Assembly: GCF_024502345.1 (NCBI RefSeq)
Contig: NZ_JALDNN010000001.1
Direction: 5' to 3' (one strand)
DNA: 64,000 nucleotides
Origin: Escherichia coli
GTDB lineage: Bacteria; Pseudomonadota; Gammaproteobacteria; Enterobacterales; Enterobacteriaceae
Shown here in pieces: positions 3,846 to 56,881 of the stretch. Each line of letters begins with the position of its first letter. The first letter of the stretch is position 1. The notes below the pieces were generated by a model that saw nothing but the letters and a program-made list of their open reading frames with translations, searched no databases and was not told where the DNA came from. The translations under genes and the position numbers were made by a program.

Positions 3846-5177
3846 TTACCCCAAATCCGCCATCAACACTTTGGATTTACGCTGGTAGTTGTACAACTGC
3901 TTTTTGCTCTCGGGCAGTAAATCAATATCCACTGGGGTAAATCCACGTTCCTGGAACCAGTGAATACTGCGCGTGGTCAGCACAAACAATTTGCTTAAGC
4001 CGCTCTGCTTCGCCTGAGCGGCAATGCGTTCCAGCAGAACCTCGCCCCGTGATGAGCTGCGGTAATCCGGGTGAACTGCCACACAGGCCATTTCCCCAAT
4101 CTTCTCTTCCGGGAACGGATAGAGCGCGGCGCAGGCAATAGTCGTGTTATCGCGCTGAATAATGGTGAATTTGTCGATTTCCATCTCCAGCTGCTCGCGA
4201 GAACGGCGCACCAGAATACCTTGCTGCTCCAGCGGGCGAATCAACTCCAGAATACCGCCAATATCGTTGATTGTTGCGCGACGAATCTGCTCGGCGCTTT
4301 CCATCACAATCTGCGTACCGATACCGTCGCGTGAGAACAACTCTTGCAACAGCGCGCCATCTTCCTGATAACTGATTAAATGACAGCGACGCACGCCGCT
4401 GCGGCAGGCTTTCACTGCGCCACGCAAAAAGCGCACCGTACCGGAGTTGTAATCGCCTTTCTCTTCCTGGGCTTCTACCCGTGCTTGCGCTTCGTTAGGG
4501 AAAAGTTCGGAGACAATATCACCGTCGTCATTAGTGACGCCTTGGGAAGAGCAAAAACCAATCATCTTTTCAGCTTTCAGTTTGATGGCCAGTTGAGTAG
4601 CAATCTCTTCCGAGGTCAGATTAAAGCTCTCGCCAGTGACTGAAACAGCGACCGGCCCCATTAGCACTATTGCACCGCTGTCCAGTTGACGATGGATCGC
4701 GTCTTCATCAATCCGCCGGATACGCCCGCTATGGCAGTAATCCACGCCGTCATCGACGCCCAGCGGCTGGGCGATAATAAAATTGCCACTGACGACGTTG
4801 ATATGCGCGCCCTGTAGCGGCGTGTTATTGAGACTCATCGACAGGCGAGCAGTAATATCCAGTTGCAATGTTCCCGCAGCCTGCTTCACCAGTTCCAGTG
4901 TTTTGGCGTCGGTCACACGTATATTCTTGTGATACAGCGGTTCGTGGTGATGCGCAGCCAGATTTGCGTCGATCTGCGGACGTGCGCCATAGACCACCAC
5001 CAGACGGATGCCGAGGCTGTGCAATAACCCGATATCATTAACGATACTGGAGAAATTCTCATGCTCAATGGCTTCACCGCCGAGCATGATGACAAACGTT
5101 TTTCCCCGGTGGGTATTGATATAGGGAACCGAATGGCGGAATCCCTCGACCAACTCGGTTTTACGTTCCTTTACCAC
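3846..5177 (-). CDS. argA: N-acetylglutamate synthase (443 aa, GTG start)
   Basis: ORF 3846..5243; protein [41 protein letters not shown]... recognised as ArgA; start placed at the in-frame GTG to give 443 aa. Confidence 0.9.
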
Positions 5178-5190
5178 GGCACACCTCTTT

Positions 5191-5226
5191 GCATGATTAT
5201 TCGAAATTAGTGTATTTTTATTCTGT
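5191..5226 (-). promoter_or_regulatory. Putative tandem ARG boxes (ArgR operator) in the argA promoter
   Basis: Two adjacent 18-bp AT-rich palindrome-like sites (minus strand ACAGAATAAAAATACACT and AATTTCGAATAATCATGC) 14-49 bp upstream of the argA start; resemble the ArgR consensus. Confidence 0.5.
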
Positions 5227-5408
5227 TTTTTCGCAGGGTGCAAGTGTAAATTTTATGCGAGAGCGACTTTTTTATCAGTAATGCCGTGAATATAAAAAGA
5301 ATGTTTACCGTTTATTAGATGACAGATTATGCGTCTTTCGCTAAAGTTTCCGGTCAAATTAGTCGTTTACTTGTTACACAGCTTAGATTTCTTTTGCTCG
5401 GGAGAGGC

Positions 5409-6662
5409 ATGTCAGGATCCAACACTGCAATCAGCCGTCGTCGTTTACTGCAAGGCGCGGGTGCCATGTGGCTATTGAGCGTAAGTCAGGTCAGTCTGGC
5501 TGCGGTCAGCCAGGTCGTGGCGGTGCGCGTCTGGCCTGCGTCCAGCTACACCCGTGTGACGGTAGAATCAAATCGTCAGCTGAAATATAAGCAGTTCGCG
5601 TTGAGTAACCCTGAACGCGTGGTGGTGGATATCGAAGATGTAAACCTGAACTCGGTACTCAAGGGGATGGCGGCACAAATTCGTGCAGACGACCCGTTCA
5701 TCAAGTCGGCGCGCGTCGGGCAATTTGACCCGCAAACCGTACGGATGGTTTTTGAGTTAAAGCAAAATGTAAAACCGCAGATGTTTGCCCTCGCGCCGGT
5801 CGCCGGGTTTAAAGAACGTCTGGTGATGGACCTTTATCCGGCCAATGCTCAGGACATGCAGGACCCATTGCGGGCGCTGCTGGAAGATTACAATAAAGGC
5901 GACCTCGAAAAGCAGGTGTCGCCTGCGCAGAGTGGCCCACAGCCAGGCAAGGCCGGGCGCGATCGTCCGATTGTCATTATGCTCGACCCTGGCCACGGCG
6001 GCGAAGACTCCGGCGCGGTGGGGAAATACAAAACGCGCGAAAAAGACGTGGTATTGCAAATAGCTCGCCGTCTGCGCTCTCTGATCGAGAAAGAGGGCAA
6101 TATGAAGGTTTACATGACGCGTAATGAAGACATCTTCATTCCGTTGCAAGTGCGCGTAGCAAAAGCACAGAAACAGCGTGCTGACCTGTTTGTCTCTATC
6201 CATGCCGACGCCTTTACCAGTCGTCAGCCGAGCGGTTCCTCGGTGTTTGCGCTCTCAACCAAAGGTGCAACCAGTACTGCGGCAAAATATCTGGCACAAA
6301 CCCAGAACGCCTCGGACTTGATTGGTGGCGTGAGCAAAAGCGGTGACCGCTATGTCGACCACACCATGTTCGATATGGTGCAGTCGCTGACCATTGCCGA
6401 CAGCCTGAAGTTTGGTAAAGCGGTACTGAATAAGCTCGGTAAAATCAACAAGCTGCATAAAAATCAAGTTGAACAGGCCGGGTTTGCCGTACTAAAGGCA
6501 CCAGATATTCCCTCCATTCTGGTCGAAACGGCGTTTATCAGTAACGTTGAGGAAGAGCGTAAACTGAAAACGGCGACCTTCCAGCAGGAAGTTGCGGAGT
6601 CTATTCTTGCAGGGATTAAAGCGTATTTTGCCGATCGGGCGACGCTGGCGAGAAGGGGATGA
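5409..6662 (+). CDS. amiC: N-acetylmuramoyl-L-alanine amidase AmiC (417 aa, Tat signal)
   Basis: ORF 5319..6662; start chosen at [23 protein letters not shown] (twin-arginine signal) with a GGAGAG RBS upstream; amidase_3 domain recognised. Confidence 0.9.
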
Positions 6663-6735: not shown

Positions 6736-6812
<77 letters not shown>

Positions 6813-6844
6813 TCACCGTACTGCTTTATTTCATTAAATTTGAT

Positions 6845-6921
<77 letters not shown>

Positions 6922-6954
6922 TCACCGTACTGCTTTACTTCATCAAATTTTAAT

Positions 6955-7031
<77 letters not shown>

Positions 7032-7239
7032 TCCGTGGATGCGCACTATACTCCGCTCGCGTTTTCATGCAACCTTTTTTTTACCCCGATCACGGATTTA
7101 GCATGATTTTGAACAAAAACAAACCACTAAAGCCTATTTTTTGTGCAAAATTTGCGTCAGGGAGAGGCTGCTCATTTCATTAAACGCGGCGGTTTGTTAT
7201 CTTCGTTGCGCCTTATTTTTTAACCTGAAGAAGAGAACA

Positions 7240-8424: not shown

Positions 8425-8524
8425 TGCCGGATGCGGCGTGAACGCCTTATCCGGCCCACAAATCATGCAAATCCAAAATATTGCAGGAGTTATGTAGGCC
8501 TGATAAGCGTAGCGCATCAGGCAT
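8425..8524. repeat. BIME: two inverted REP (palindromic unit) elements
   Basis: gccggatgcggcgtgaacgccttatccggcc and gtaggcctgataagcgtagcgcatcaggc match the E. coli REP consensus. Confidence 0.8.
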
Positions 8525-11516: not shown

Positions 11517-11722
11517 AAAAAAAAGCACCGCAATTAGGCGGTGCTACATTAATCACTATGGACAGACAGGGTAAATGTACAGGAAGTGAAAAAAGGTAGC
11601 TTTGCTACCATGGTCTGAATCGCAGACCAATTGCAAACACAACAACACAACATCACAACCGTAAGCCAAAAGTTCACCAGAACACGCATTCCGATAAAAC
11701 TTTTCGTTCCGGCTCAGGAAGT
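11517..11722 (-). ncRNA. gcvB: GcvB small regulatory RNA (about 206 nt)
   Basis: Minus strand reads ACTTCCTGAGCCGGAACGAAAAG...GTTGTGATGTTGTGTTGTTGTGTTTGCAATTGG... and ends in a hairpin GCACCGCCTAATTGCGGTGC plus U-run; recognised as E. coli GcvB, divergent from gcvA. Confidence 0.9.
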
Positions 11723-28110: not shown

Positions 28111-28221
28111 GAAAAACTCCTTATGGGACGAATATCGTCATTCCCTTTGATTACAATAGCCCTGCCTGATGACCTTTCACAACCTTCTGCGTGAATCCAG
28201 CACGCAAAATTGAGAAAAAAT

Positions 28222-29702: not shown

Positions 29703-29720
29703 TGTGAGAGATCTCTTACA
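29703..29720. promoter_or_regulatory. UvrY (SirA)-type 18-bp palindrome upstream of csrB
   Basis: TGTGAGAGATCTCTTACA near-perfect palindrome about 175 bp upstream of the CsrB start. Confidence 0.7.
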
Positions 29721-29894
29721 GACTCTGTAGGAGATCGCCAGGAAATAAGCGAATACTTAAAAAGATAAGAATCGTTATTTTCATTTAAAATCAAAATGTT
29801 GATTGTTAATTCTTAACTTTCATATGAAATTTTCCTTAAGGCATTGTCTGTAAGCGCCTTGTAAGACTTCGCGAAAAAGACGATTCTATCTTCG

Positions 29895-30259
29895 TCGACA
29901 GGGAGTCAGACAACGAAGTGAACATCAGGATGATGACACTTCTGCAGGACACACCAGGATGGTGTTTCAGGGAAAGGCTTCTGGATGAAGCGAAGAGGAT
30001 GACGCAGGACGCGTTAAAGGACACCTCCAGGATGGAGAATGAGAACCGGTCAGGATGATTCGGTGGGTCAGGAAGGCCAGGGACACTTCAGGATGAAGTA
30101 TCACATCGGGGTGGTGTGAGCAGGAAGCAATAGTTCAGGATGAACGATTGGCCGCAAGGCCAGAGGAAAAGTTGTCAAGGATGAGCAGGGAGCAACAAAA
30201 GTAGCTGGAATGCTGCGAAACGAACCGGGAGCGCTGTGAATACAGTGCTCCCTTTTTTT
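29895..30259 (+). ncRNA. csrB: CsrB regulatory RNA (CsrA-sequestering, multiple GGA motifs)
   Basis: About 365 nt with roughly 18 repeated CAGGA(U)G/AGGA motifs and a terminal hairpin GGGAGCGCTGTGAATACAGTGCTCCC plus U-run. Confidence 0.9.
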
Positions 30260-30304
30260 ATTCCTGCTATCCTTCGCGGCAGTTTTTCTTATTGAGGTTG
30301 CTTT

Positions 30305-36603: not shown

Positions 36604-39360
36604 TTACCCGAGAATTTTGCTGGCTTCGCGCGCGACATTATCCATCTCGTCCAACAGTTCCAGCAGCTCCGGCTCCAAATCTTCTTCTTTAGTACCGCTA
36701 CGTAGCTGTTGTTCGATCAGTTGGCAGAGATTCTTCATACGCGGCACACCGCTATAGCCGCAACTGCCATGCAGTTTATGAATCAAATCAACCAGGCCTT
36801 CCGGGTTTTCTCCAACCAGCTGCTCCTCAACTTTGTTGCGAACTTCAGGCAGGAAATCGAGTAACATTTGCAGCATATCGCGCGCTAAATCGGTTTTTCC
36901 TGCTGCCTGGCGTAGTGCCAGTTGCCAGTCGAGGGTCGCATTCGGGTTCACCACAATTTCGTTGACTTCGGGCGTCACGACGCGAGACGAAATACCGCTG
37001 CCAGGCTTGTAGCGCAACAACAAATTATGCAATCGCTCTTCTTCAATCGGTTTCGCCAGATAATCGCTCATCCCTGCGCCAAGCAGCTTCTCTTTTTGCC
37101 CGGCCATTGCATGCGCCGTTACCGCGATAACCGGCGTTTGTTGCTGATGGGGGAGCTGGTGGATGAGCTCGCAGGCCCGAATGCCATCCATGTCAGGCAT
37201 TTGAATATCCATTAAGATCAAATCGAACGGCATCTGTTTCGCCCGTTCAACCGCCTGATGCCCGCTATCGCAAAGTTCCATATGTTGCACCATATCTTCC
37301 AGCAATGCGCCGATAAGTTTCAGGTTAGCGGGGTTGTCATCAACTGCCATGACTGTCATTGCCAGCTTGCTTTCATCGGTTACAGGCAAAAGCGTGTTTT
37401 GTTTGTGATGACAAAATTCCGTCAGGGCAGGCAACAGGCGCGTAGGTGTTAATGGTTTCAGCAGACACGCGCCGATACCATCTTGCTTGAGTTTTTCTGC
37501 ATTGACTTGTGCATGGCAAGGAAGTGCCAGCATCAGGAAATCGGTCATCGATACCGCTTTCGCTAATCGCTCATGTTGCATTGTTAGCGGCTCGCGGAAG
37601 GTCACCGCGATGCCTAACAACATCATGTCGTAATGCGCGGGAGGCAGCGCGGAGAACGTTGGGCTATAAACCACTTCCAGCGGCGTTTCACTTAAAATAT
37701 CCAGCGTGCATTGCGCTGCTGCGGAGTTTGGTTCGACATAGGCCAGGCGCTTACCGGCGAGGCACTGGGTGGATGGCCCTTCGATAATAATGTTCGGGTT
37801 CAGATCGAGATTAATGTGGAACCAGAAAGTTGAACCGCGATTCGGCTGGCTATGGAACGAAATATCGCCGCCCATTTCATTAACCAGTTTTTGTGTAATC
37901 ACCAGCCCCAGACCGGTGCCACCATGACGGCGGGAAATACTGGCATCAGCCTGTCGGAAGGCCTGGAATAAGCGCGATTGATCGCGTTCAGGAATACCAA
38001 TGCCGGTATCCCGAATCTGCACTTCAATCTGCACTTTGGTATTACTCAGCGCACGTTTTTCTACCAGAATATCAATGTTGCCATTCTCGGTGAATTTAAT
38101 TGCATTCCCCACCAGGTTAGTGATGATTTGCTGTAATCGCAGTGGGTCGCCGATCACGTTATCAGGCACGTCGCTTTTAATATTGAGCGTCAGTTCCAAC
38201 CCTTTATCGTGAGAAGAATGTGCCAGCAGAGTAACGACTTCATCCAGCGTGCTGCGTAGTGGGAATGGAATACTTTCCAGAATCAGCTTACCTGCTTCCA
38301 GTTTCGAGAAGTCGAGAACATCATTAATAATTGCCAGCAAATTATTTGCCGAACGTTCAATCGTATTCAGGTGATCGCGCTGCGTTGGTGTTAATTCTGT
38401 TTTCAGCGTCAGGCGGGTAAAGCCAATAACACCATTCAGTGGTGTACGCAGCTCGTGTGACATATTTGCCAGAAACTCGGATTTAATACGCGCCGCTTCC
38501 TGGGCGCGCTTTTTCGCCAGATCTAACTCAACGTTCTGAATTTCCATCTGCTCCAGCGTTTCACGCAGATCGGACGTCGCCTGGTCGATATTGTGCTGCA
38601 TCTCTTCGTGATAAGCAGCCAGCGACATTGCCATCGAGTTGATACCGTTTTTCAGCATATCCAGCTCGCCGAGCATAAATCCTTCCACCCGGCTGTCGAG
38701 TTGCCCGCGACGGATGCGGTCGACGGTATTCACCATGTTGCGAATCGGACCGGTTACATCGCGCATTAAGCGCCAGCCAAAAATAAGCGCAATACCGATA
38801 CAAAACAGCATCATCACGCTGGAAATAAAGATCTCTTTATATTGCTGCAAGCGAACCGATTTAAGATCCAGCTCCAGCGCAATATATCCCAACATATTTT
38901 GACTATTTTTGGCATCGCTACTGGGCGATTCGTCGGGGGAGTAACTCTCAGAAATAATCGGCGTGCGGAGGATCATAATATCGCCGTCACGAGTGACAGT
39001 GAGCTGGCGAGGAAACGGCACGTTGCTGCCGAGCTGCATTGATGAGGGATCAAGATGAAAATTGGAGGTGACAAAGAGTCGGTTATTTTCATCATAAACC
39101 GAAATCGCGCGAACAATATCGGAATGGCGACGATGCAGTACGCTTATTAACTGACCGATAGATTCGCGATTTTGCAGGCTCATGCCATATTCAGTAGAAA
39201 CTGCAAGCGGCTCAATAATGCTGGCACCGGCATCTTCCAGTTGACGCTGCAAGTCGTTATAGCGATGCACGACGAAAAAGATACTCAGCAATAAACCAAT
39301 AAGGACGGTCGGTGCCAGGATCAGAATCATCATGCGTGCGCGCAGGCTGTAGTTGGTCAT
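36604..39360 (-). CDS. barA: Tripartite sensor histidine kinase BarA (918 aa)
   Basis: 918-aa ORF with HAMP, HisKA/HATPase, receiver and HPt domains; recognised as BarA. Confidence 0.93.
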
Positions 39361-47833: not shown

Positions 47834-48706
47834 TTACCAGCGGCCGGATGCGCCGCCACCTCCAGAAGAACCGCCACCGCCGCTAAATCCGCCGCCACTT
47901 GAGCCTCCACCGGAACCGCTGTTATCTGAATGATAACTTTTACCTGATGCTCTTTTCTGAAGTACACATAAACAGGTAAAGACCATAAATATGGTGAAAG
48001 TAAAAAAGAAGGAAAATACAGCAATGGAAAAAATTTTATCGGAGAACAGGAATAAATCTAAAAGATAGATTGCTGAAATATAGACTCCACTTTTACATGC
48101 GCGACAAAAATTACTGCCTTGATGAAAAAACCAGAAAGGGAAGAACATCACTGCAAATACCCAAAAAATAGCAAAGTAATAATGATCACTGGAAGACGCT
48201 GATTCACTTTCTGAAGGATTAGTCGGATATTGGTGTTGTGAAGTGAGTTGGTTATTCAAAGCGTTTATAGCTAGCTCTAATCCCTGAGCAAATTTTTGTT
48301 GTTTAAATGCGGGTATCATGTTGCTACGGATGATATCTCCAGCCAGAGCATCGGTTACCTTTTCTTCCAGCCCATAACCTACCTGGATGCGGACAGTACG
48401 ATCTGACCAGGCAACAATGATCAGTATCCCATCATTACGTTTGGCATCTCCTAAACGCCAATTGTCAAAAACTCTTGTAGCATATTGTTCAATTGTCTCG
48501 TCTTTGGTTGTGGGAACAATTAATACAGCAATTTGCACTTGGGTATTATTGAAAATAGATTCTAACTTGTGCGTCAGTTCTTTCTTTTCTTGTGAGTTTA
48601 AGCTACTCGTAAGATCCGTAACTTGTTGCTGTAATTGTGGGACAATAGTTGGTTGGGCTGCAACAAAGGAACATACGAAAGTGAACATTAGTATGAAATA
48701 GCGCAT
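47834..48706 (-). CDS. ygcG: TPM-domain protein YgcG with signal peptide and Gly-rich C-terminus (290 aa)
   Basis: ORF 47834..48775; start set at [18 protein letters not shown]; C-terminal [16 protein letters not shown] tail. Confidence 0.8.
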
Positions 48707-48998
48707 TATAAATTTCTCATTAAATCTGGATAAATAAATTGACGGCGGCATCGGTAATTTTAGATTCGTTATCATTAAAAACTAATACAGAAAAAATAAA
48801 TATAATTTTGGTGAATGTTTTGACATGATTAAATCCATTTTCTTTATTTTCTTCTGACATAATACGTTACTCCCTTTAATTATTAACGATATGTTTCGCA
48901 TTTTTCTTTAAATCTGCCTGTAACAGAATGTTAATAAGACATGATTGTTGTGGCAGGATCTGCAATAATTAACAATTATCCACTTCACAGAGAATGCT

Positions 48999-49670
48999 AT
49001 GCAGTACCCGATTAACGAGATGTTCCAGACCCTGCAAGGTGAGGGTTACTTTACCGGCGTCCCCGCCATTTTTATTCGTTTACAGGGATGCCCGGTTGGC
49101 TGTGCCTGGTGCGACACCAAACACACCTGGGAAAAGCTTGAGGATCGGGAAGTCTCCCTTTTCAGCATTCTGGCGAAGACCAAAGAGAGTGATAAGTGGG
49201 GGGCGGCGAGCAGTGAAGACTTGTTGGCTGTCATTAGTCGCCAGGGATACACCGCGCGGCATGTGGTGATTACGGGTGGTGAGCCTTGCATTCATGATTT
49301 GCTACCACTGACTGATCTGCTCGAAAAGAACGGTTTTAGCTGCCAGATCGAAACCAGTGGTACTCATGAGGTACGCTGCACACCGAATACCTGGGTTACC
49401 GTATCACCAAAGCTGAACATGCGCGGCGGCTATGAAGTGTTGTCACAGGCACTGGAGCGAGCCAACGAAATCAAGCATCCAGTGGGGCGCGTACGTGATA
49501 TTGAAGCACTGGATGAACTACTGGCAACGCTGACCGATGATAAACCGCGAGTCATTGCACTGCAGCCGATTAGCCAAAAGGATGATGCCACACGTTTGTG
49601 CATTGAAACCTGCATTGCGCGTAATTGGCGTTTGTCGATGCAAACACATAAATATCTAAATATTGCCTGA
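48999..49670 (+). CDS. queE: 7-carboxy-7-deazaguanine synthase QueE (YgcF, radical SAM, 223 aa)
   Basis: 223-aa ORF with radical-SAM cysteine motif CPVGCAWCDT. Confidence 0.9.
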   Translation: MQYPINEMFQTLQGEGYFTGVPAIFIRLQGCPVGCAWCDTKHTWEKLEDREVSLFSILAKTKESDKWGAASSEDLLAVISRQGYTARHVVITGGEPCIHDLLPLTDLLEKNGFSCQIETSGTHEVRCTPNTWVTVSPKLNMRGGYEVLSQALERANEIKHPVGRVRDIEALDELLATLTDDKPRVIALQPISQKDDATRLCIETCIARNWRLSMQTHKYLNIA

Positions 49671-49689
49671 TTAAACATTTATAAGCGTT

Positions 49690-50009
49690 ATAAATGGGTG
49701 GAACCTGTAAAGACTTCTACTCATTTATATTGTTTGTCGCCTCTGAAAACTCCTCCATTTTACCCATCCAGGGCTAATCATTAGCATTCTCTACAAATTC
49801 TGTGGCATTAATTTTTCGCTGGAGTGAAAATTATTGCGGTAAAGTTTGGTAGATTTTAGTTTGTATAGAGTTATTTTAAATATTTACCTTTTTAATCAAT
49901 GGATTAAGTGCTCTTTAACATAATGGATGTGTTGTTTGTGTGATACTATAAAGTTGGTAGATTGTGACTGGCTTAAAAAATCATTAATTAATAATAGGTT
50001 ATGTTTAGA
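49690..50009 (+). promoter_or_regulatory. AT-rich CRISPR leader
   Basis: AT-rich non-coding stretch directly abutting the first repeat, on the side opposite the degenerate terminal repeat. Confidence 0.6.
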
Positions 50010-50832
50010 GTGTTCCCCGCGCCAGCGGGGATAAACCGCGCGATTTGTTAGCGCCCGTTGCGCCTGGTGGGTGTTCCCCGCGCCAGCGGGGATAAACCGC
50101 GCGAGTTCGTGCGCATGGGGCGCATTTTTGGCGTGTTCCCCGCGCCAGCGGGGATAAACCGCGGCGTTCATGCCCTCCAGCACTGTTACGCGGGTGTTCC
50201 CCGCGCCAGCGGGGATAAACCGTAGTCAAGCGGTAATTCATCGCCTGCAGATCCGAGTTCCCCGCGCCAGCGGGGATAAACCGGCTAATTTACGTAATTT
50301 ACGTGCTATTGCACTGAGTTCCCCGCGCCAGCGGGGATAAACCGTGGGTCATGCCGGTGATCGCCTGCCCGTCGTGGAGTTCCCCGCGCCAGCGGGGATA
50401 AACCATCACCACCGCTTGTCATAAAATTAGCGTCATAGAGTTCCCCGCGCCAGCGGGGATAAACCGGGGAGTGGCACTTCTGGGGTAGCGGCGGCCCTGA
50501 GTTCCCCGCGCCAGCGGGGATAAACCGTCAACGCGCTCAGACGTTGCGTGAGTGAACCAGAGTTCCCCGCGCCAGCGGGGATAAACCGAAATATCCAGGG
50601 CTGGGCTGGAGGCAGACGGCGAGTTCCCCGCGCCAGCGGGGATAAACCGGCGTTGATGTTCTTGCGGGTGTTGCAAATATTGAGTTCCCCGCGCCAGCGG
50701 GGATAAACCGTTTCAGCAGTTCAGCGTAACACCGACGGTCACGAGTTCCCCGCGCCAGCGGGGATAAACCGCCCGGAATGCATTCTGAAGGTTTGCTGTA
50801 TATGAGTTCCCCGCGCCAGCGGGGATAAACCA
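50010..50832 (+). CRISPR. Type I-E CRISPR array: 14 repeats of 29 bp, 13 spacers (32-33 bp)
   Basis: Repeat GAGTTCCCCGCGCCAGCGGGGATAAACCG at strict 61-62 bp periodicity from 50010 to 50804; the first 3 repeats carry a GTG variant, and repeats 7 and 14 end in A. Confidence 0.97.
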
Positions 50833-51286
50833 CCATATAACCCGTTATCTCTTTCTCAAGTTTTTATATTAGCAGTACTTGTAATAAGCAACATATCCAC
50901 GTAACACCTCATGTTCAAAATAGTTCTCCATGCCAGAGAGGTTCACAATTATCGATACAAAAAATTAAATTTAATCAAAGTGTTATTTGTATGACTCTTA
51001 AATCGTTAAGAAATTTTAATCTATTATTTTTTTAATATTGAATTAATGCCTGTTAATTTTTTCTTTAGAATAACAGTATATTTTTTAAGCTTGTTATTCA
51101 TTGGTTAAGTAATAAATCTGGAAGTTTGTCTTTGTTTTGAGGCTAATGAGTGGTTTTACATAACCGCCTCTATACGCTGTTGATGAATAGTTCTTATGAA
51201 TAAAGATATCCAGTTCATACTTTAAGTGAAAATTGATAAAGTGCGATTCGTATTGTCTTTAATTCTAAAGACATCGAGTGTAGTTA

Positions 51287-51425
51287 ATATTCCTTGTAAA
51301 AACAGGGATAAACCGAACTAGTTAAAGTTTTTATTATGTTCCCTGCATCAGCGGGGATAAACCGGACTTGTTATCATTTTTTAAGTTGTCGAACTTATGT
51401 TCCCCGCGTCAGCGGGGATAACCAT
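51287..51425 (+). CRISPR. Degenerate CRISPR remnant (about 3 diverged repeats)
   Basis: ATGTTCCCTGCATCAGCGGGGATAAACCG and ATGTTCCCCGCGTCAGCGGGGATAACCAT separated by a 32-bp spacer, preceded by a partial ...CAGGGATAAACCG copy. Confidence 0.75.
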
Positions 51426-52975: not shown

Positions 52976-54253
52976 TTACTTGCTGCTAGCCATTGCGGGG
53001 GCGCTATCAGCAGTACGAATTTTTTGGAACAGCAAAAAGGTAAAGACAATCACCATGGCAAGCGCCGCCATTCCCATCAGCCACATATTGCGGTAGGCTT
53101 CTGCTGCGGGCAGGGTGTCTTGCCAGTGGCCGATAATCGGGTAAACGAAGACATCCGGCAGGAATCCAATCACCGAACAAATACCTACCGTGGTGCCCAT
53201 AATGTAAGACGGTGTTCTCGCTTCGCCAGGGCAGGCCCAGTACAGCCCGCGTGAGGCGTAACAGGTGAATCCCAGCAGTAAAATCAGGCCAATCCCCATC
53301 GCGACCGATTGCGGGTTAGAGTTCGTGACGAGCAGGGCAGTTAACGCCAGCAGGTCGAGTACGGAAAGGATTTGGATCACGCGGGTAGGGGATTTCACTT
53401 TACTGTAGGTGGTGATAATGCCGCCAAGTGGGCCGCACAGCGCGCGGAAGATTTTGTTGATCACAATCCCCATGTAGCTCGCTGCCACCAGCGACATGCC
53501 GTACATTTCGGTCAGATAGTTGGTGGAGTAACTCAGAATGGCGTAGATTGTGAAGACACCAAAAATCACCATGCTGCAATACCAGGTGGTGCTGATACGC
53601 AAAACGGCAAGGATGTCGCTAAGCTGGAATGACTGTTTTTCTTCGTTATTGGCACTGCGCAGGTTGTTGTTATCGCTAACAAAAAACCAGCACAGAATCC
53701 CCAACAAGATGTAAACCACACTGTAGATGATAATGACTGTTTTCAGGCTGGCGCTGTCATCCGGTGCAAAGCGAGAAAAGACCCACATGGTAAACACCGC
53801 CAGCGACATTACACCGACGCCGCGCAGCCCTTCCATCCAGCCCATAATTTTCCCTTGCTCACTATGATCGCCCAGCAACGAGGCGGCTTTAATCGACACC
53901 GACCACAGCATTAAAATCGTCGTTATCGCAAAGGCGACCTGAATACAGAGCATTACCCACAGCGGTGGATACGTTGCCATTAACAGACCCAGTAATCCGG
54001 TAATGATCATCGCGGAAGTAATCATTTTGCGGTGTGAAAATTTATCGGCAATAACGCCGCTGGGGGCATAAAGAATAATAGCCGCAATACCAAAGGTACT
54101 CATTATTAAACCTATCTCGGTATTGCTGAATCCCATAAATTTCGCCATGGGAATTTGATAAATATAACGTAAATAAGCCAGGTCAAAACTAACGCCGCCG
54201 CTAAAACTAATTATCGCGAGGGTTATCCAACGGCGATATGAGTTGTGTTGCAT
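52976..54253 (-). CDS. yqcE: MFS transporter YqcE (425 aa)
   Basis: 425-aa 12-TM-like ORF directly upstream of ygcE on the same strand. Confidence 0.8.
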   Translation of the reverse strand: MQHNSYRRWITLAIISFSGGVSFDLAYLRYIYQIPMAKFMGFSNTEIGLIMSTFGIAAIILYAPSGVIADKFSHRKMITSAMIITGLLGLLMATYPPLWVMLCIQVAFAITTILMLWSVSIKAASLLGDHSEQGKIMGWMEGLRGVGVMSLAVFTMWVFSRFAPDDSASLKTVIIIYSVVYILLGILCWFFVSDNNNLRSANNEEKQSFQLSDILAVLRISTTWYCSMVIFGVFTIYAILSYSTNYLTEMYGMSLVAASYMGIVINKIFRALCGPLGGIITTYSKVKSPTRVIQILSVLDLLALTALLVTNSNPQSVAMGIGLILLLGFTCYASRGLYWACPGEARTPSYIMGTTVGICSVIGFLPDVFVYPIIGHWQDTLPAAEAYRNMWLMGMAALAMVIVFTFLLFQKIRTADSAPAMASSK

Positions 54254-54431
54254 ATCGTATTCCCATTTGTAATAGAAAAAAAAAAGAGAAAAGTAAGCCG
54301 CCCTTTCAGGTGGATTACTTTTCTCAGGTCTCTAGTAATTGCAATAAGAAATAACATGGAAAGCAGAGGTGTTGTGTGAGAGTAATCACGCTTCTGCTTT
54401 TTAAAACTATTTGACAATACGAATATCACAC

Positions 54432-54447
54432 TGTGATTACGATCACA
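54432..54447. promoter_or_regulatory. Consensus CRP site in the yqcE / ygcW divergent intergenic region
   Basis: TGTGA-ttacga-TCACA, perfect match to both half-sites. Confidence 0.6.
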
Positions 54448-54498
54448 TTAGCAGTTATGCCGTTATGCTAAAAATTATCTCCAGTTACCAGAGATAAT

Positions 54499-54547
54499 GA
54501 GAAAGGTAACTTCCCTCTCGCGGGGGAAGTTACCTTTCTTTTTTTTT
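54499..54547 (+). terminator. Strong intrinsic-terminator-like hairpin in the ygcW leader (candidate attenuator)
   Basis: Perfect 16-bp stem agaaaggtaacttccc/gggaagttacctttct, loop tctcgcg, then a T9 run; ends 25 bp before the ygcW ATG. Confidence 0.7.
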
Positions 54548-54571
54548 GCCTTACGGAAATTGGAGCTAACT

Positions 54572-55357
54572 ATGTCAATCGAATCTCTCAATGCGTTCTC
54601 AATGGATTTTTTCTCACTGAAAGGTAAAACCGCAATTGTTACCGGTGGGAATAGCGGTTTAGGCCAGGCATTTGCCATGGCGTTGGCCAAAGCTGGCGCA
54701 AATATCTTTATTCCTAGTTTCGTCAAAGATAACGGCGAAACAAAGGAAATGATTGAAAAACAGGGTGTTGAGGTGGACTTCATGCAGGTGGATATCACCG
54801 CAGAAGGCGCGCCGCAGAAGATTATCGCTGCTTGCTGTGAGCGTTTCGGTACAGTTGATATTCTGGTAAACAATGCCGGTATTTGTAAGCTGAATAAGGT
54901 GCTGGACTTCGGTCGTGCCGACTGGGATCCGATGATTGATGTGAACCTGACCGCCGCATTCGAGTTAAGCTATGAAGCGGCAAAAATTATGATCCCGCAG
55001 AAAAGCGGCAAAATTATTAATATCTGTTCATTGTTCTCTTACTTAGGTGGACAATGGTCACCTGCATATTCTGCCACTAAACATGCTCTTGCCGGATTCA
55101 CCAAAGCTTATTGTGATGAACTAGGTCAATATAATATTCAGGTAAATGGTATTGCCCCTGGCTATTATGCAACAGATATTACGCTGGCGACACGCAGTAA
55201 TCCAGAAACCAATCAGCGCGTTCTTGATCATATTCCGGCAAACCGTTGGGGCGATACTCAGGATTTAATGGGCGCAGCTGTATTCCTCGCAAGTCCGGCT
55301 TCAAATTATGTCAATGGGCATTTATTAGTGGTCGATGGTGGTTATTTAGTGCGCTAA
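54572..55357 (+). CDS. ygcW: Short-chain dehydrogenase/reductase YgcW (261 aa)
   Basis: ORF 54497..55357; start set at MSIESLNAF after a GGAG RBS; SDR motif TGGNSGLG. Confidence 0.85.
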   Translation: MSIESLNAFSMDFFSLKGKTAIVTGGNSGLGQAFAMALAKAGANIFIPSFVKDNGETKEMIEKQGVEVDFMQVDITAEGAPQKIIAACCERFGTVDILVNNAGICKLNKVLDFGRADWDPMIDVNLTAAFELSYEAAKIMIPQKSGKIINICSLFSYLGGQWSPAYSATKHALAGFTKAYCDELGQYNIQVNGIAPGYYATDITLATRSNPETNQRVLDHIPANRWGDTQDLMGAAVFLASPASNYVNGHLLVVDGGYLVR

Positions 55358-55426
55358 TCCATAACGGTGGTTTCTGTTTTCTCTTATTAATGATTATTCC
55401 ATTTTTATTATCAGGAAGGAATTACT

Positions 55427-56881
55427 ATGTCTTTATCTCGCGCAGCGATTGTCGACCAACTAAAGGAAATTGTTGGTGCAGATCGCGTAATTACCGATGA
55501 AACAGTATTAAAGAAGAACAGTATTGACCGTTTTCGTAAATTTCCGGATATTCATGGCATTTATACTTTGCCGATTCCGGCAGCGGTCGTAAAACTCGGT
55601 TCCACAGAGCAAGTATCCCGTGTGCTGAATTTTATGAATGCGCACAAAATTAACGGTGTGCCGCGTACCGGTGCTTCCGCCACCGAAGGTGGGCTGGAAA
55701 CTGTTGTAGAAAACTCGGTGGTGCTCGACGGTTCCGCCATGAATCAAATCATTAATATTGATATTGAGAATATGCAGGCGACGGCGCAATGTGGCGTTCC
55801 CCTGGAAGTGCTGGAAAATGCGTTGCGTGAAAAAGGTTACACCACGGGGCATTCTCCGCAGTCAAAGCCGCTGGCGCAGATGGGCGGCCTGGTAGCAACC
55901 CGCAGTATCGGGCAGTTCTCCACACTCTACGGCGCAATCGAAGATATGGTCGTTGGTCTGGAGGCAGTGTTGGCAGATGGCACCGTCACACGCATTAAAA
56001 ACGTGCCACGCCGCGCGGCTGGCCCGGACATTCGTCACATCATCATCGGCAACGAAGGTGCATTGTGCTATATCACTGAAGTAACAGTGAAAATCTTTAA
56101 ATTCACCCCGGAAAACAACCTCTTCTACGGCTATATCCTGGAAGACATGAAAACCGGCTTCAACATCCTGCGTGAAATCATGGTGGAAGGGTATCGTCCG
56201 TCGATCGCTCGTTTGTATGACGCTGAAGATGGCACCCAACACTTCACCCATTTTGCCGACGGTAAATGTGTGCTGATCTTTATGGCTGAAGGCAATCCTC
56301 GCATTGCGAAGGCGACGGGCGAAGGGATTGCGGAAATCGTTGCCCGCTACCCGCAGTGCCAGCGCGTGGACAGCAAACTGATCGAAACCTGGTTTAACAA
56401 CCTGAACTGGGGACCGGATAAAGTGGCTGCCGAACGTGTGCAGATCCTCAAAACCGGCAACATGGGCTTTACCACTGAAGTGTCCGGCTGCTGGAGCTGC
56501 ATCCACGAAATCTACGAAAGCGTTATTAACCGTATTCGTACTGAGTTCCCGCACGCCGACGACATCACCATGCTGGGCGGTCACTCCTCTCATAGCTATC
56601 ATAACGGCACCAACATGTACTTCGTCTACGATTACAACGTCGTTGACTGTAAGCCGGAAGAGGAAATCGACAAGTACCACAATCCGCTCAACAAGATCAT
56701 CTGTGAAGAAACCATTCGCCTCGGCGGTTCGATGGTGCACCACCACGGTATCGGTAAACATCGCGTTCACTGGAGCAAACTGGAACACGGCAGCGCGTGG
56801 GCGTTGCTGGAAGGGCTGAAAAAGCAGTTCGATCCTAATGGCATTATGAATACGGGTACTATCTATCCGATTGAAAAATAA
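55427..56881 (+). CDS. ygcU: FAD-linked oxidoreductase YgcU (GlcD/vanillyl-alcohol-oxidase superfamily, 484 aa)
   Basis: 484-aa ORF with FAD-binding PCMH-type domain features. Confidence 0.8.
   Translation: MSLSRAAIVDQLKEIVGADRVITDETVLKKNSIDRFRKFPDIHGIYTLPIPAAVVKLGSTEQVSRVLNFMNAHKINGVPRTGASATEGGLETVVENSVVLDGSAMNQIINIDIENMQATAQCGVPLEVLENALREKGYTTGHSPQSKPLAQMGGLVATRSIGQFSTLYGAIEDMVVGLEAVLADGTVTRIKNVPRRAAGPDIRHIIIGNEGALCYITEVTVKIFKFTPENNLFYGYILEDMKTGFNILREIMVEGYRPSIARLYDAEDGTQHFTHFADGKCVLIFMAEGNPRIAKATGEGIAEIVARYPQCQRVDSKLIETWFNNLNWGPDKVAAERVQILKTGNMGFTTEVSGCWSCIHEIYESVINRIRTEFPHADDITMLGGHSSHSYHNGTNMYFVYDYNVVDCKPEEEIDKYHNPLNKIICEETIRLGGSMVHHHGIGKHRVHWSKLEHGSAWALLEGLKKQFDPNGIMNTGTIYPIEK

Follow-up and report, generated by a model that had tools for sequence, protein, structure and literature searches.

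An ArgR operator formed by two ARG boxes with a 3-bp spacer upstream of argA in Escherichia coli

The stretch of DNA that we analysed, referred to here as the window, comprises 64 kb of the Escherichia coli chromosome. Of 5426 complete E. coli genomes, 5425 match positions 4900-5700 of the window with 95-99.9% identity and carry annotations of argA and amiC there, and the gene order of the window, mltA-metZWV-amiC-argA-recD, is that of K-12 MG1655. The argA gene, which encodes N-acetylglutamate synthase, and the cell-wall amidase gene amiC are transcribed divergently from a 231-bp intergenic region with a GC content of 36% (Table 1). The start position of argA is occupied by GTG or ATG across the related loci. 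A mechanical extension of the argA open reading frame to a TTG at 5243 was rejected as an artefact, since annotation and conservation both place the start at the GTG at 5177. The possibility of an RNA element in the intergenic region or the leader was also considered; the argA-amiC interval gives no match to any Rfam family, and the arg genes of E. coli are stated not to be controlled by attenuation (PMC6245113).

Table 1. Features of the argA-amiC divergent region, in window coordinates.
Feature	Position	Strand	Evidence or remark
argA coding sequence (N-acetylglutamate synthase)	3846..5177	-	GTG start 5177-5175, stop 3846; K-12 annotation b2818
Shine-Dalgarno GAGG of argA	5184..5187	-	Sequence inspection; GAGG or AAGG kept in related loci
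ARG box 2, promoter-proximal, TTCGAATAATCATGCAAA	5188..5205	-	11.5 bits, 3 mismatches to consensus
Spacer AAT between the boxes	5206..5208	-	3 bp is the best-scoring arrangement in the window
ARG box 1, promoter-distal, ACAGAATAAAAATACACT	5209..5226	-	16.6 bits, 2 mismatches to consensus WNTGAATWWWWATTCANW
Putative -10 hexamer TAAAAA of argA, inside ARG box 1	5215..5220	-	Position relative to the conserved -35; within the invariant box 1 block
Putative -35 hexamer TTGCAC of argA	5238..5243	-	CTTGC (5244-5240) invariant in 78 distinct sequences aligned
amiC	start 5409	+	Divergent from argA

On the amiC side of the region, a promoter-like arrangement, ATGACA-17-TAAAGT, lies on the plus strand at 5319-5347. 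It is accompanied by a block, AATGTTTACC..TTATTAGATGACAG..TATGCGTC, which is strongly conserved in Enterobacteriaceae, above the level of the DNA between the block and the argA -35. The 5319-5347 region is likely to contain the amiC promoter together with a putative regulatory site.

An earlier note, made from the sequence alone, had proposed that two adjacent 18-bp imperfect palindromes resembling ARG boxes overlap the argA promoter immediately upstream of its GTG start and mediate arginine repression by ArgR. We examined this proposal with an ARG-box weight matrix built from the K-12 upstream regions of carAB, argF, argI, argECBH, argD, argR, argG, artJ and artP, from which argA was excluded. 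The matrix was seeded with the consensus in the published arrangement of 18+3+18 and then iterated, and the whole 64 kb was scanned. Within the window, the distal box gives the highest single-box score, and the pair at 5188-5226 gives the highest pair score, 28.05, against 12.25 for the next pair with a spacer of 3 bp. The comparison of the matrix score with the background, which the earlier note had set beforehand as the refuting test of its reading, therefore came out in favour of an ArgR operator. When the intergenic region was shuffled with its dinucleotides preserved, none of 20,000 shuffles attained the score of the pair, and the maximum among them was 25.75. In a leave-one-out comparison, eight established E. 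coli operators score between 22.2 and 38.7, a range that includes the 28.0 of argA. One member of the training set, the argR autoregulatory operator, contributes an unconvincing pair of 10.9 bits; when the matrix was rebuilt without this site, the argA pair scored 27.9-28.0 and ranked first as before. Moreover, K-12 MG1655 has exactly the same 60 nt on the 5' side of the argA start codon.

The operator reads ACAGAATAAAAATACACT-AAT-TTCGAATAATCATGCAAA on the minus strand. Since it consists of two 18-bp boxes and a 3-bp spacer, the site measures 39 bp, and the centres of its boxes are 21 bp apart, corresponding to two helical turns. This anatomy corrects the earlier description in several respects. 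The distal box had been placed exactly, and the proximal box had been drawn directly against it at 5191-5208, a frame that scores -15.85 bits with 8 mismatches; the true box is offset by the spacer, so that the two boxes are not adjacent. The term palindrome applies only loosely, considering that box 1 has four of nine self-complementary pairs and box 2 has six of nine. No strand had been given, and because argA lies on the minus strand, the boxes are upstream of it only in the minus-strand reading. The position immediately upstream of the GTG was right: 10 nt separate the proximal box from the start codon, and the ribosome-binding site, GAGG, abuts the box directly. Taken as a positive control, the case indicates that a reader working from sequence only placed a true transcription-factor binding site within 3 bp.

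We scanned one genome per species and thereby collected 80 argA loci of Enterobacteriaceae, from genera including Citrobacter, Salmonella, Enterobacter, Klebsiella, Raoultella, Kosakonia, Kluyvera, Buttiauxella, Cedecea and Erwinia. The operator is deeply conserved among them. The pair is kept at the same place in all 80 loci, always with 3 bp as the best spacer and with scores of 21.9-33.6, and in the 77 loci with a correctly set start it precedes the start codon by 10-14 nt (in L086-L088 the start was set 3 nt off). The core of box 1, GAATAAAAATACA, is present in 80 of 81 distinct sequences, the sole exception being L088 with GCATAAAAATACA. In the alignment of 78 distinct sequences, the core of box 2, CGAATAA..AT.CA, is, like that of box 1, essentially invariant, and most other intergenic columns are 30-60% conserved.

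Variation within E. coli follows the same pattern. In a spread sample of lineages, substitutions are confined to the spacer and to degenerate positions of the boxes, and the GAAT and ATxCA cores are intact. The single-base variants found in other lineages include ACACT to ACAAT, the spacer AAT to AAA, and C11 of box 2 to A; the last of these, present in O157:H7 and others, is a change toward the consensus. Of the 80 loci, that of E. coli SCPM-O-B-8794 (L010) has the most diverged operator, ACAGAATAAAAATACAAT-AAA-TTCGAATAACCATGCAAA (pair score 21.9), and its T-to-C change at the centre of box 2 leads away from the consensus. Judging from the sequence, the operator of this strain and the C11-to-A variant could modulate the strength of repression. 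A 171-bp query matches 5423 of 5426 E. coli genomes. The 39-bp operator itself matches 2419 of 5426 genomes by megablast, a count that is low because the search requires an exact word of 28 bases and does not indicate absence of the operator.

The comparative data also bear on the promoter. Of 80 distinct sequences, 75 have a distance of 17 bp from TTGCAC to TAAAAA, although the spacer itself exists in 73 versions. Accordingly, the conservation of TTGC and of the 17-bp spacing supports an overlap between box 1 and the -10 of argA, as the earlier note had suggested in more general terms, and gives independent support for a promoter whose -10 lies in the distal box. We infer that the argA promoter is TTGCAC-17-TAAAAA; transcription is predicted to start at about 5207-5208 and to produce a leader of about 31 nt. 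The putative -10 hexamer is without the usual final T, the -35 hexamer has three of six consensus matches, and this arrangement was not among the sites reported by a generic consensus promoter scan. An alternative -10, AAAAAT at 5219-5214, would have an 18-bp spacer.

The properties of ArgR described in the literature agree with the arrangement found here. Cho et al. (PMC4381063) give the ArgR motif as two 18-bp palindromes and a 3-bp spacer, 39 bp in all. Their study and a second source (PMC6245113) describe tandem boxes at a fixed spacing of 2-3 bp, with centres 21 bp apart on one face of the helix, on which a single arginine-loaded hexamer binds both boxes cooperatively and bends the DNA by 70-90 degrees. 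Repression is attributed there mainly to steric exclusion of RNA polymerase. By ChIP-exo, all 15 previously characterised ArgR regions were covered, and argA is not named in the main text of that study (PMC4381063). ArgR occupancy in vivo and arginine-dependent repression at argA are taken from the literature (PMC8282354, PMC3658269). Occupancy measured by IPOD-HR is strong at the known ArgR sites 5' of argA, and upstream of argA it is weaker in arginine-poor medium and gone in an argR deletion (PMC8282354); an argA promoter-GFP fusion was modelled as ArgR-repressed, and its activity rises on arginine depletion (PMC3658269). The enzyme is described as controlled both by feedback inhibition and, at transcription, by ArgR (PMC1413537).

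On these grounds, we consider that 5188-5226 is the argA operator, at which bound ArgR excludes RNA polymerase and represses argA, with a probability of about 0.95. The distal box would hold the -10 of the argA promoter, and the proximal box would cover the predicted start of transcription and about 20 nt of the early leader, as far as the ribosome-binding site. When arginine is plentiful, ArgR would occupy both boxes and arginine biosynthesis would be shut off at its first committed step, argA. With the boxes lying over the -10 and the start, bound ArgR would keep the polymerase away from the promoter; steric exclusion as the mode of repression at argA depends on the placement of these two predicted elements.

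A different arrangement would keep the operator and move the promoter. The only minus-strand intergenic site returned by the consensus promoter scan is CTGATA-17-TAAAAT at 5278..5250, which would start transcription near 5243, so that the boxes would lie downstream of it at about +17 to +55 and ArgR would block transcription or promoter escape as a roadblock. ArgR sites downstream of promoters are described for 11 genes by Cho et al. (PMC4381063). However, CTGATA is poorly conserved among the relatives, with column identities of 0.3-0.6, and TAAAAT reads GAAAAT, TGAAAT, GCAAAT or GGAAAT in most of them, so that the essential A at position 2 is often lost; what is conserved instead is TTGC and its 17-bp spacing to TAAAAA. 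Therefore, we regard transcription from the upstream site as unlikely, although its presence qualifies the promoter overlap claimed earlier. It is extremely improbable that the 39 bp are not a specific ArgR operator, representing only an AT-rich core promoter and leader or a site for Lrp, IHF or H-NS. The low GC content of the region would agree with such a compositional origin, as would moderate single-box scores at other AT-rich places of the window, such as 12.9 at 38089 and 12.4 at 28209, and part of the conservation could be owed to the promoter elements that the boxes overlap. A canonical Lrp ChIP peak has also been assigned to the argA promoter (PMC10127797), which means that ArgR is not the sole protein on this AT-rich region. 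On the other hand, composition-matched shuffling did not reproduce the pair score, no other site of the window comes close to it with 3-bp spacing, the conserved positions are the core positions of the ARG box, and the occupancy in vivo depends on argR.

We also weighed a second role of the ArgR site, in which expression of amiC, or binding of Lrp, would be coupled to arginine status. The idea arises from the position of the site, considering that its proximal box abuts the ribosome-binding site and that the divergent amiC promoter is no more than about 95 bp away. The wrapped ArgR-DNA complex measured by ChIP-exo covers about 93 bp. An extension of the footprint by at most about 47 bp would reach about 5273, short of the amiC -35 at 5319, and the geometry thus argues against this second role, which we hold to be very improbable.

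Returning to the argA operator as the preferred reading, it is the long-known ArgR operator of this gene and an ordinary one. The K-12 operator is the same element in another strain, and the 60 nt, the gene neighbourhood and the 18+3+18 arrangement are all alike, with no difference between them. For the ARG boxes of the K-12 arginine regulon, Cho et al. (PMC4381063) cite Charlier et al. 1992, Tian et al. 1992 and Maas 1994. Accordingly, the result carries little weight as a discovery, being a textbook pair of repressor and operator in the best-studied bacterium.

Comparison with other K-12 operators places the argA site within the regulon. The second box of the argECBH operator, TATGAATAAAAATACACT, has the 15-nt run GAATAAAAATACACT in common with box 1 of argA; the two operators share the 3-bp spacing and have similar pair scores (29.8 in the leave-one-out comparison vs 28.0 for argA). 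They differ in position, since the argC start is 88 nt away from the argECBH operator, which belongs to the divergent control region of argE and argCBH, whereas the argA operator abuts the ribosome-binding site at 10 nt from the start. The operator of carAB P2 is likewise a tandem pair with a 3-bp spacer that ends 10 nt before the start codon; it overlaps promoter elements, as the argA operator is predicted to do, and binding of ArgR and of RNA polymerase is mutually exclusive there (PMC6245113). On the other hand, carAB has two tandem promoters and its boxes overlap the -35 of the second one, whereas the distal box of argA overlaps the putative -10 of an apparently single promoter. Beside the ARG boxes of K-12 argF (2276-2371 of the upstream record, L003), a small open reading frame, argL, annotated as 'putative translational regulatory protein ArgL', overlaps the argF start; no small open reading frame comparable to argL is annotated upstream of argA.

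Elsewhere in the window, the second-best ARG-like tandem lies at 29778-29815, where TTTTCATTTAAAATCAAA-AT-GTTGATTGTTAATTCTTA, with a 2-bp spacer, scores 22.3. It is situated in AT-rich intergenic DNA between syd and csrB and precedes csrB (Rfam CsrB, 29903-30262) by about 90 nt. The match probably reflects base composition or an AT-rich element of the IHF type. Just upstream of it, at 29704-29721, stands a perfect 18-bp palindrome, TGTGAGAGATCTCTTACA, which we take to be the UvrY site.

Closer to argA, three identical initiator tRNA-Met genes, metZWV, occupy the minus strand at 6739-7031, followed by the region upstream of mltA (to 7140). A new ArgR association by ChIP-exo was assigned to 'mltA / one of six methionine tRNAs' by Cho et al. 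2015 (PMC4381063). In the metZWV-mltA region, 6739-7140, the matrix found only weak boxes, of which the one at 6828 scores best (6.5 bits) and another, at 7098, reaches 3.6 bits; if the association is real, there is no good ARG-box pair in this region to explain it.

A stretch at 48300-51300 is low in GC (39.8% over 48001-50000), shows about 92% identity to its best matches and contains many weak AT-rich ARG-like hits. In other E. coli, a CRISPR array flanked by queE, ygcG and yqcG is annotated there. A second low-GC stretch is found at 54001-56000 (43.9%). The Rfam search also returned two small RNAs that are expected in this part of the E. coli chromosome, GcvB at 11517-11722 on the minus strand (199 bits) and ES036/CssrF at 8459-8501 on the plus strand (46.5 bits).
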